This document shows positions 1-56,390 of a stretch of DNA of 58,458 nt, in pieces; the first letter of the stretch is position 1; every line of letters starts with the position of its first letter. A program made the position numbers and the translations under genes. The DNA comes from a virus (Duplodnaviria > Heunggongvirae > Uroviricota > Caudoviricetes), in the IMG/VR virus record IMGVR_UViG_2724679172_000006; one strand, 5' to 3'. Under the pieces are notes generated by a model. The model was not told where the DNA came from. It saw nothing but the letters and a program-made list of their open reading frames with translations, and searched no databases.

Positions 1-221
1 CTTCCCCGGCTTCAACATTGTTGAGCACTTCAGAAAGGTTGCCACGCGCGGTACGGAAGTTAATGGATTGCATAAACACCTCGTGTACTCGTTATGTGTA
101 CACAATTATAAACTTCACAGGCATAAAGCACCAGCACTTTGCAGCTTAAATAACCGGACAATCATCAAATTCCCCACTTCGGGCATCATTGATGACATGA
201 GTGATCACACCAAAAACAGCA

Positions 222-419
222 TTACTGAAACACAAGCAGAGAACCATCAACCGGAGTAAGCGAGGAATCAACCACCAGCAAAGCACCCTGCAATATTCCC
301 TCACGGTGATGGCTATCAGCTGCCCGCATGAAGTAGGTCGCTGAAGGATGTCTAATTATCTGCTGATCAAGAGAAATTCGGCTTTCAACATAATCCGCCG
401 CAGGAGAAGGGAAGCCCAT
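222..419 (-). CDS. humD: UmuD-prime-like SOS mutagenesis accessory protein (HumD-like), apparently truncated
   Basis: Track translation MGFPSPAADYVESRISLDQQIIRHPSATYF.. matches the post-cleavage N-terminus and S24 core of UmuD; LexA box 20 nt upstream; ORF stops early and a C-terminus-like segment (AVFGVITHVINDAR) lies in another frame at about 149-220. Confidence 0.55.
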   Translation of the reverse strand: MGFPSPAADYVESRISLDQQIIRHPSATYFMRAADSHHREGILQGALLVVDSSLTPVDGSLLVFQ

Positions 420-437
420 AGCGTTTTACCTCAATAA

Positions 438-457
438 TACTGTTTATTCATACAGTA
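438..457. promoter_or_regulatory. LexA (SOS) box
   Basis: TACTGTTTATTCATACAGTA contains a perfect CTGT-N8-ACAG palindrome, between humD-like start and hot-like end. Confidence 0.7.
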
Positions 458-542
458 TACATTGAAAAGGCATAGTTTGTGAAAGCGGGGTTTGTAGGCG
501 CGCCACGCTGGGGGCTAATCACATTTCTCCCCCATCTTGCCG

Positions 543-815
543 TTATTTTTTTGGTGCATCCTCGTTCTGATACACCGGATCGCTCCCTTTTGGCAACTGG
601 AGGCTTAACTGCCGGTAGTGCCGTAACCGTTCCATGAAATAGGTGCGCAGATTCTCTGGTTGCTCGCGGGCTACCTGTTCAGCTATGACAGGTATGTTCA
701 ATCGCTCTTTGTACGCCACACCGCTGGCAGCCAGATCAACGTTAACCTTATCCCGTTCTTCCTGACTTTTAGCTGCAATATTCCAATCGTGCATATCAAA
801 TCCCATCCAGAACAA
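543..815 (-). CDS. hot: DNA polymerase III theta subunit homologue (HolE-like)
   Basis: Segment [43 protein letters not shown] resembles E. coli HolE; TTG start in track, a likelier start is the internal MHDWN methionine. Confidence 0.6.
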
Positions 816-1243: not shown

Positions 1244-1381
1244 ATGACTGCTTTTTTTCAGTTCCTGAGTGCATTTTTAGATGCGCCTGTTATTAGCCAG
1301 ATTCTGGCGATCATCCTCATCATCGTTTTGATTTTGCTTTTAAGGTCAGTAAAAAATGGAATTATGCACTGGCTTACTTAA
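1244..1381 (+). CDS. small hydrophobic peptide, 45 aa (MTAFFQFLSAFLDAPVISQILAIILIIVLILLLRSVKNGIMHWLT)
   Basis: ATG preceded by AAGGAA at 8 nt; single predicted transmembrane helix; lies in a gap between minus-strand genes; below the track size cut-off. Confidence 0.25.
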   Translation: MTAFFQFLSAFLDAPVISQILAIILIIVLILLLRSVKNGIMHWLT

Positions 1382-3897: not shown

Positions 3898-4803
3898 TCA
3901 TTGATTCACCTCCTGCGGCGGTTCTGGTAGCGGCATCCAGTGTGACGGTTTCCACGACGCACCAGGAATTATCCACCCATCATTAGCGTCAGGATGCCCC
4001 GGGATGTAAGTAGCCCATTTCATTCGCCAGTCACCTTTCCTGTCAAACTCCACGGCAACAAGAACGGCTGTTTTGGTATTCGGCATTCGCTCACTACAGC
4101 TTATCCAACCATCCGGAGTTACCGGAACTTGCGGAATGGCTGTCTGCTCTCGAACGTCATTAGGCGCTATAGGTTCTGCTGCCAACTGACTGGCATATTT
4201 GTTAATGGTAACGATAAGCTCTTGCTCAGCCTCATCCAGACAATCACCGATACCTCGCCTGTCACCGTCAAAATCATCGAAATCGGCACGAATCTTGGCA
4301 ACCTTCAGGATTGCGGACAACACCTCACTAGGAATTACCGGATAGTTGGTTGACGTTTCCGCGATTTCCCGAAAATTATTGGTTGACGAATTCTTGTTTT
4401 CCCGAAAGTTTCCGGACTGAAGCATGGCGGCGCGGCAGGCGTTCCAGCCAGCTGTTCGCCCAAGCGCGTAAACTTCAGATGGCTCAAGATAATCAATGTC
4501 ATGCCCGTCCTCATCGTCGTTCTCAGGTAATGCAGCAGGTACTACCGGTACTGGCGGAGCGGTGTAGACCTCAATAATCCCATTATCAATAGGCCATTCT
4601 CCATCCTTGAGATAGTCACTTGTGCCGTCAACTTGCTGTTCAGCAATGTGGAATGCACCAACTGGCTCTGCCTCAAGCGAGGCCAGTGCAATTCGTGCCA
4701 GTTCTTCCGCTTCTTCTGCTGGCAGTACAACGTTGCTACCAGGTCCGTATGTTTCGCGCCACTGCCTGATTGTCAGCAGTCGCTCTTTGGTAATAGTGGT
4801 CAT
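3898..4803 (-). CDS. hypothetical protein with DUF551-like C-terminal domain
   Basis: C-terminal W/P-rich segment (WISCSERMPN..WMPLPEPP) typical of phage DUF551 proteins. Confidence 0.5.
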   Translation of the reverse strand: MTTITKERLLTIRQWRETYGPGSNVVLPAEEAEELARIALASLEAEPVGAFHIAEQQVDGTSDYLKDGEWPIDNGIIEVYTAPPVPVVPAALPENDDEDGHDIDYLEPSEVYALGRTAGWNACRAAMLQSGNFRENKNSSTNNFREIAETSTNYPVIPSEVLSAILKVAKIRADFDDFDGDRRGIGDCLDEAEQELIVTINKYASQLAAEPIAPNDVREQTAIPQVPVTPDGWISCSERMPNTKTAVLVAVEFDRKGDWRMKWATYIPGHPDANDGWIIPGASWKPSHWMPLPEPPQEVNQ

Positions 4804-54960: not shown

Positions 54961-56390
54961 GTAAAACAACACCGACTAAAGACAGTATTCGTGCAGAGTT
55001 TGAAGAGCTTGTCGAGAAAGATTCATTCTGGTCGAAGTTTGTCGGCTCTCAATTTGTCTCGATGCTGACATTGTTTATTACCCAGATTGTCTACAGGTGC
55101 TTTCAGTATGCCGATGCGGCGCTGGCTGAAGGCTTTATATCGACCGCGACGCGGCGTTCCTCTATCCTGGCAGCGGCAGAAACGAATAGTTACGTTGGTA
55201 CCAAGCCAACACCGTCATCGGGGATGATTGAGATCACCGCCACAAGTGAAGATGCCCCAGCGGTAATCCCCAAAAACATGCCTTTAATATCTGACGACCA
55301 GTATCCTTACATGACTATGGATGTATGCAGGTTGGTTGACGGCACCGGTACGGTAGAAGTGGCACAGTTGGAAATCCAGGAGGTGACATATACCGTTACG
55401 GCAGCCAAAGAATTTCTGGAAGTCGTGTTATCAAAGGCTCTCACTGCTGTCTGCTATAAGCTGGAAGTATTCGTGACGACCGATGGTAAGACCACGCAGT
55501 GGTCTTCCAGCACTATGTTCCGGTTAGCCGGTAGTAAAAGCCAGGTCTACGTTGAGTTTTATAAACCATCCGAACAGTTGGGTGTTCGATTCGGCGATGG
55601 GCTAATTGGGCAAATACCGCCAGAAGGCTCGACAATTACGCTTAAGGTATGGTGCACCAACGGCGATATAACCCTGGTTGCTGGCCAAAACCTGACGCCT
55701 GTCGATTCTGCGGCTAATTTAGCTAATTTGATTTCAGTTAAGACAACGACACCTATAACCGCAGGTACCGATGCTGAAACAACGGAGATCACACGTAACC
55801 GTGCACAATATTACCTTGCCTATGATGATCAGGTCGTATGGGGCGGGGACTATACGTATTTTCTGGTTCGTAACATCCCGGGGCTGTCCTGGGTAAAGGC
55901 ATGGGGCGAAGGCCAGCAAGAGAAATTAGATGGTGCTTATAATGTTCAGAATATCAATAAGATATTTATTTCAGGATGGCATCCAAATAAAAGCCAGTCA
56001 GAGCTTGAAGAAATGATCCTGACTGCCTTTAAGAAGGTACCGAATGAACTGAACAAGAAATTCTCTTATAAAGAGGTCAGAAAACTACCATTTAAGATAA
56101 CCATCACCGGACGGATATCGGCAAGCCTGACCATTGAGAATGTGACCGATGAGCTGAAGTCGGCACTGGAAACAAAATTTGGGCGCGACTCAACTTTCTT
56201 TGATCCGAACCGCGTCGGAAAGTACATCTTGATTAAGAAAAAAGACGTTTGGGCTTTTATAGAAACGCTGGGTTATTTCCGCGACTTTTATCTGGAATTT
56301 GTCGAGTGGAATGAGTCCAACGGCTTTTACGATTTCGTTTATCTGGATACAGAAAACTCCACCTTTAATATTTCGTATGAGGAGGAGTGA
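54957..56390 (+). CDS. baseplate protein, gpJ/gp6-like by position
   Basis: 477 aa immediately after gp25-like gene with overlapping stop/start. Confidence 0.4.
   Translation: MSKTTPTKDSIRAEFEELVEKDSFWSKFVGSQFVSMLTLFITQIVYRCFQYADAALAEGFISTATRRSSILAAAETNSYVGTKPTPSSGMIEITATSEDAPAVIPKNMPLISDDQYPYMTMDVCRLVDGTGTVEVAQLEIQEVTYTVTAAKEFLEVVLSKALTAVCYKLEVFVTTDGKTTQWSSSTMFRLAGSKSQVYVEFYKPSEQLGVRFGDGLIGQIPPEGSTITLKVWCTNGDITLVAGQNLTPVDSAANLANLISVKTTTPITAGTDAETTEITRNRAQYYLAYDDQVVWGGDYTYFLVRNIPGLSWVKAWGEGQQEKLDGAYNVQNINKIFISGWHPNKSQSELEEMILTAFKKVPNELNKKFSYKEVRKLPFKITITGRISASLTIENVTDELKSALETKFGRDSTFFDPNRVGKYILIKKKDVWAFIETLGYFRDFYLEFVEWNESNGFYDFVYLDTENSTFNISYEEE

Follow-up and report, generated by a model that had tools for sequence, protein, structure and literature searches.

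The window analyzed here, the whole 58,458-nt stretch of DNA, carries near its left end a truncated humD reading frame on the minus strand, with hot directly upstream of it and phd directly downstream. The hot gene (543 to 815, minus strand) encodes a homolog of the DNA polymerase III theta subunit (Pfam DNA_pol3_theta with E = 6e-34; PHROG 1105). The start of phd, the antitoxin gene of phd-doc, occupies positions 1 to 73 (minus strand; translation MQSINFRTARGNLSEVLNNVEAGE) and is cut by the window's left end; it was assigned by synteny with P1 and phage 813R1. This order, with hot upstream and phd-doc downstream, is the genomic context of the HumD family and matches both P1 and 813R1. No gene for a Y-family polymerase (umuC, mucB, or rumB) lies right after humD; as in P1 the next gene is phd, and the arrangement is not that of a umuDC-type operon. 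In P1, hot and humD are separated by the 573-bp lxr gene, which is encoded on the opposite strand, and a common LexA box serves both lxr and humD, whereas lxr is missing from the corresponding interval of the window (420 to 545), where hot ends ∼120 bp upstream of the humD start. The same lxr-less hot-humD spacing is found in phage 813R1 and plasmid pNord122_1, and since lxr is absent in the window's lineage, the LexA box would there serve humD alone.

The first kilobase of the window is 96.8 to 99.7% identical to P1-type phages, the matched stretch being annotated hot, (lxr), humD, and phd. The first 25 kb is at least 99% identical to ∼160 P1-like plasmids of E. coli, Salmonella, and Shigella, the second 25 kb is ∼98% identical to P1-family phages, and the comparison with P1-type phages and plasmids as a whole spans 96 to 99.7% identity. 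Judged by these identities, the window is a P1-like (Punavirus) phage-plasmid. The closest relatives found are phage vB_EcoM-813R1 (813R1, ON470617.2) and plasmid pNord122_1 (NZ_CP139854.1), at 99.7% over the 1-kb region and 99.3% over 25 kb; they have the hot-humD spacing of the window but carry an intact 390-bp humD. Three minus-strand tRNA genes were found, for Met (CAT, 21383 to 21458), Thr (TGT, 23086 to 23161), and Asn (GTT, 23164 to 23239), and the phage-plasmid therefore has its own small tRNA set, which is P1-like. Just past the tRNA-Thr/tRNA-Asn pair, at 23359 to 23370, the window has a 12-bp insertion (CTTCAGCATGAA) relative to pNord122_1, and a 1-bp difference from the same plasmid lies at 4671. 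A mosaic patch at 3940 to 4667 is unaligned with pNord122_1 or only 94% identical to it (4131 to 4348), with flanks of more than 99% identity, and the patch is consistent with the variable pmgT-humD region of P1-like phage-plasmids (PMC9603915). A 45-aa, strongly hydrophobic open reading frame at 1244 to 1381 (plus strand, MTAFFQFLSAFLDAPVISQILAIILIIVLILLLRSVKNGIMHWLT) runs on the strand opposite to all of its neighbors and gave no PHROG match. In pNord122_1 the frame carries the annotation "hypothetical protein," and an IS1 element that the window lacks is inserted directly next to it; the size and composition of the encoded product would be in keeping with a small membrane peptide, for example, a putative type I toxin.

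The control region of humD is untouched. The earlier note had reported a perfect LexA box before the open reading frame, and this is borne out: the site TACTGTATGAATAAACAGTA (438 to 457, minus strand) has perfect CTGT-N8-ACAG half-sites and agrees with the 20-nt consensus at 17 of 20 positions, and its palindrome lies 18 nt upstream of the humD reading frame. No other match to the 20-nt consensus occurs in the 58 kb of the window, and 100 dinucleotide-preserving shuffles produced none. The box aligns with the annotated P1 LexA binding site (87545 to 87564), which lies equally far upstream of P1 humD and which the P1 record places within the lxr/humD regulatory region. The SOS regulation of the HumD family is thus represented here by a predicted LexA operator in the promoter region, homologous to the P1 site. 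A consensus scan placed a promoter-like −35 hexamer, TTCACA, at 478 to 483 and a −10 hexamer, TATACT, at 454 to 459 (both minus strand), the latter, as read from the sequence, overlapping the LexA box; the predicted sigma-70-like promoter (TTCACA-18 nt-TATACT) has 10 of 12 matches, a score for which sites in this region are no commoner than by chance. A Shine-Dalgarno-like GAGG (429 to 432, minus strand), read from the sequence 9 nt upstream of the ATG, is conserved in 813R1 and P1. Elsewhere in the window, a second CTGT-N8-ACAG match at 23854 to 23869 (CTGTCGCGGCTAACAG) has a GC-rich spacer and departs from the 20-nt LexA consensus at more than three positions; it is probably a chance occurrence, because 12 of 100 shuffles give at least two such matches.

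The reading frame itself (222 to 419, minus strand) begins with an ATG at 419 and ends, after 65 codons (MGFPSPAADYVESRISLDQQIIRHPSATYFMRAADSHHREGILQGALLVVDSSLTPVDGSLLVFQ), at a TAA stop at 224 to 222, which is where the earlier note had placed the stop. Its N-terminus, MGFPSPAADYVE, begins like processed UmuD, as had also been claimed: residues 2 to 12 match UmuD′ G25 to E35 at 11 of 11 positions. The sequence falls on position 1 of the HumD profile, so that the start is equivalent to UmuD′ Gly25, and there is no cleavable N-terminal pro-segment. From 419 to 230 the frame is colinear with HumD codons 1 to 63 and the opening base of codon 64, and over this stretch it is identical to 813R1 humD (190 of 190 bases), so that all of the first 63 codons agree. 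The extra base that had been suspected near position 360 is accordingly not present, the translation being colinear throughout this stretch, and the suspicion arose from a manual misreading. Against the NCBIfam HumD model (NF051876, "HumD family translesion DNA polymerase," 129 positions), the 65-aa frame covers positions 1 to 64 with 111.6 bits, under the curated equivalog cutoff of 120 bits, which calls for a full-length match (∼129 aa), whereas the intact HumD of 813R1 scores 220.3 bits over positions 1 to 129. With a score below the cutoff and coverage of positions 1 to 64 only, the DNA is therefore better described as a humD pseudogene than as a functional member of the family. The same frame matches positions 8 to 71 of the 116 in Pfam Peptidase_S24 (PF00717) with 25.3 bits and also matches PHROG 811 (UmuD-like).

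The missing C-terminal part of the protein is encoded, in part, just downstream. An out-of-frame remnant of the humD 3′ end (146 to 227, minus strand) comprises the last base of codon 103, codons 104 to 129, and the original TAA at 148 to 146; its 26 codons, at 226 to 149 in the +1 frame, encode SNAVFGVITHVINDARSGEFDDCPVI and match HumD positions 104 to 129 of the NCBIfam model (E = 8.5e-11). This is the segment resembling the UmuD C-terminus that had been noticed in a different frame. The HumD profile is thus split, with positions 1 to 64 in one frame, 104 to 129 in another, and 65 to 103 absent, and re-inspection of the region found no intact single-frame reading frame of HumD length.

The lesion was mapped by aligning the window with phage vB_EcoM-813R1 and P1, followed by base-by-base comparison. 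The 118 bp missing from the window correspond to 813R1 positions 2271 to 2388 (humD codons 64 to 103), and 2 bp, a TT filler at 228 to 229 (minus strand), stand in their place, as established against 813R1 (ON470617.2). The net change is −116 bp; the frame is therefore shifted, the reading frame ends after 65 codons, and what is left of HumD beyond the lesion, its last 26 codons, is out of frame. The frameshift and internal deletion proposed in the earlier note are both confirmed by this comparison. The 82 bases from 227 to 146, through the stop codon, and the further downstream bases that were compared are identical to 813R1, and the flanks of the lesion are 99.7 to 100% identical to intact relatives. 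The junction sequence is GTGTTTCAGTAATG, read as codons GTG TTT CAG TAA, with a TTT run at 228 to 230. A homopolymer error or single-base frameshift as the cause is rejected, given that the lesion is a replacement of 118 bp by 2 bp, although the junction itself happens to form a homopolymer run. A search of the intact sequence for direct or inverted repeats of at least 6 nt at both breakpoints found none, and slipped-strand deletion between direct repeats and hairpin-mediated deletion were set aside on this ground. The TT filler suggests illegitimate recombination; the filler is itself unusual.

UmuD′ is the accessory subunit of DNA polymerase V, and HumD works as a dimer with host UmuC, on which it relies. 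Intact HumD aligns to the UmuD′ structures 1UMU, 1I4V, and 8GMT (E = 4.5e-23 for 1UMU), and HumD and E. coli UmuD′ (residues 25 to 139 of UmuD; PDB IDs: 1UMU, 1I4V, and 8GMT) have in common the S24 peptidase-like fold family and the N-terminus GFPSPAADYVE. Structure and multiple alignments place HumD Ser36 at UmuD Ser60 and HumD Lys73 at UmuD Lys97; the serine is kept in the 65-aa frame and the lysine lies in the deleted part, so that there is no complete S24 domain with its Ser and Lys dyad. Relative to UmuD′, the window thus has the Lys97 equivalent and the C-terminal half of the fold either missing or out of frame. E. coli UmuD differs in carrying a 24-residue N-terminal pro-segment, whereas HumD is made without one and needs no RecA-mediated cleavage; a passage of PMC7092418, citing McLenigan et al. 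1999, describes HumD as a pre-activated, shorter UmuD and reports from the same work that P1 HumD supports UmuC-dependent SOS mutagenesis. HumD is thus already active when it is made, upon cleavage of LexA. According to a note in the P1 record, HumD functionally complements E. coli UmuD′. Compared with P1 HumD (YP_006569.1, 129 aa), codons 1 to 63 of the window differ at one residue (I21 versus L21) and the last 26 codons are identical in protein, and the hot-humD-phd-doc order is common to both; where P1 HumD and the family model have a continuous protein, the window instead has TT for 118 bp, a frameshift, and a 65-aa product below the family cutoff. Contrary to the possibility that reference HumD proteins end at the same point, those of P1 and 813R1 have a length of 129 aa, like the NCBIfam model; together with the near-complete humD in 643 of 650 plasmid records described below, this rejects a naturally short HumD isoform. 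In all, the features that speak to ancestry (N-terminus, operator, and synteny) are present and those of a complete protein (score above the cutoff, Ser/Lys dyad) are absent.

From these comparisons, the following course of events would account for the locus. The intact humD would have encoded a 129-aa protein, starting at the RecA-processed UmuD′ start, from a LexA-repressed promoter, and by analogy with P1, for which this is established, HumD with host UmuC would support pol V-like translesion synthesis and SOS mutagenesis. One deletion would then have removed codons 64 to 103, left TT, and shifted the frame. Upon SOS induction, transcription would presumably still proceed from the untouched promoter and operator, with translation from the untouched ribosome-binding site, but would yield only a 65-aa N-terminal fragment. 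Such a fragment would keep the N-terminal arm and Ser36 (UmuD Ser60) but would have lost Lys73, the central β-strands, and the strand at the C-terminus (VFGVITHV), whose sequence is conserved between HumD and UmuD′. We infer that it would be unable to fold or dimerize and that the allele is null. Downstream, phd-doc has, in the P1 record, its own annotated promoter just past the humD stop codon, and because the sequence matching this promoter is retained in the window, phd-doc should be unaffected.

The untouched 5′ part of the gene also invites the speculation that the 65-aa fragment is functional: induced by SOS, it might, for example, use the UmuD′ N-terminal arm to bind UmuC, RecA, or the beta clamp and so act as a dominant-negative or a modulator. 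The promoter, LexA box, ribosome-binding site, and first 63 codons are all intact, so the fragment should be made in SOS induction. However, a β-sandwich domain cut in half is unlikely to be stable, the private, non-recurrent occurrence of the allele argues against selection for it, and the material examined offers no precedent; we regard this function as very improbable. A second proposal that retains some activity invokes an in-frame, 90-aa "mini-HumD," which would arise if the TTT at 228 to 230 were really TT (a homopolymer miscall of one T) or if the ribosome slipped +1 at UUU-C, since either change would fuse residues 1 to 63 via a Phe to residues 104 to 129 (…SLLVF-SNAVFGVITHV…). Yet the CAG after UUU is neither a stop nor a rare codon, no +1 stimulator is obvious, no 90-aa form occurs among the relatives listed, and the product would still be without Lys73 and ∼39 core residues (UmuD 88 to 127, most of the central β-strands), and we give this proposal hardly any weight. 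The broken, SOS-inducible allele is likewise highly unlikely to be other than inert, with the 65-aa fragment or the 90-aa slippage product serving as a modulator, for example, as a dominant-negative against host pol V assembly. If this were true, a phage-plasmid mutagenesis factor would have been turned into an anti-mutator. The reading we prefer is that of a null allele created by a single deletion.

The deleted allele was then considered against related sequences. By megablast against phages, plasmids (n = 1,338 matching), and complete E. coli genomes (n = 1,396 matching), the deletion was found in none of the matches listed, each of these aligning in two pieces whose overall span exceeds that of the query by 116 bp. 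Exact junction strings were not found in viral, genome, and metagenome contig collections, and no record was found with the exact 65-aa product. A shared or lineage-specific allele is rejected on this basis, the matches listed all being split and neither the junction nor the product being found. A near-complete humD (at least 80% in one place) is present in 643 of the 650 humD-matching plasmid records, mostly as a single 390-bp piece; the other seven have no copy covering at least 80% of humD, and disruptions are thus rare but occur. In the Shigella dysenteriae plasmid CP026821.1, the humD match (55043 to 55430) has a span of 388 instead of 390 bp, a sign that another P1-like plasmid may have acquired a frameshift independently. 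On these counts, humD is normally conserved, and the present allele, null by prediction, is rare and private.

An allele this rare could also be an artefact of assembly or consensus, the true molecule having an intact 390-bp humD and the gap and TT stemming from assembly or polishing. That the allele is unique (not found in any collection searched, among the matches listed), that several plasmids with intact humD match its flanks at 100% identity, and that no repeat accounts for a biological deletion all speak for such an error. However, over the ∼27 kb of aligned segments shared with the closest plasmid, pNord122_1, whose humD is an intact 390 bp, the only indels besides the humD lesion are those of 1 bp and 12 bp. 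With just two other indels, an indel-rich, noisy long-read assembly is rejected, and the humD lesion is therefore best seen as a single discrete event. Moreover, assemblers rarely drop a unique, non-repetitive 118 bp and add a 2-bp filler, and private deletions are to be expected in a gene that a genome-wide CRISPRi screen of P1 scored as non-essential (PMC10695390). We consider an artefact improbable, though more plausible than a functional fragment or a mini-HumD.

We therefore favor, with a probability of roughly 0.8, the explanation that this locus is the humD of a P1-like phage-plasmid inactivated by a single illegitimate 118-bp deletion with a TT filler, giving a null allele by recent, private, and probably neutral pseudogenization. 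Given that humD is non-essential (PMC10695390) and that hot-lxr-humD is one of eight variable regions in P1-like phage-plasmids (PMC9603915), neutral loss is plausible. The gene, its pre-processed N-terminus, the LexA box, and the genomic context have all been described already, and only this allele is new; we see in it an ordinary case of a non-essential accessory gene turned pseudogene, and not a new system. The locus should be annotated as a humD pseudogene (internal-deletion frameshift) with an intact predicted LexA operator; labels such as short S24 peptidase or novel small SOS gene would be wrong. The locus adds a further example to the variability of the hot-lxr-humD region (PMC9603915) and to the dispensability of humD (PMC10695390), and, if the strain is available, the element, as a natural humD-null P1-like plasmid, could be a control for the role of HumD in SOS mutagenesis in natural hosts.
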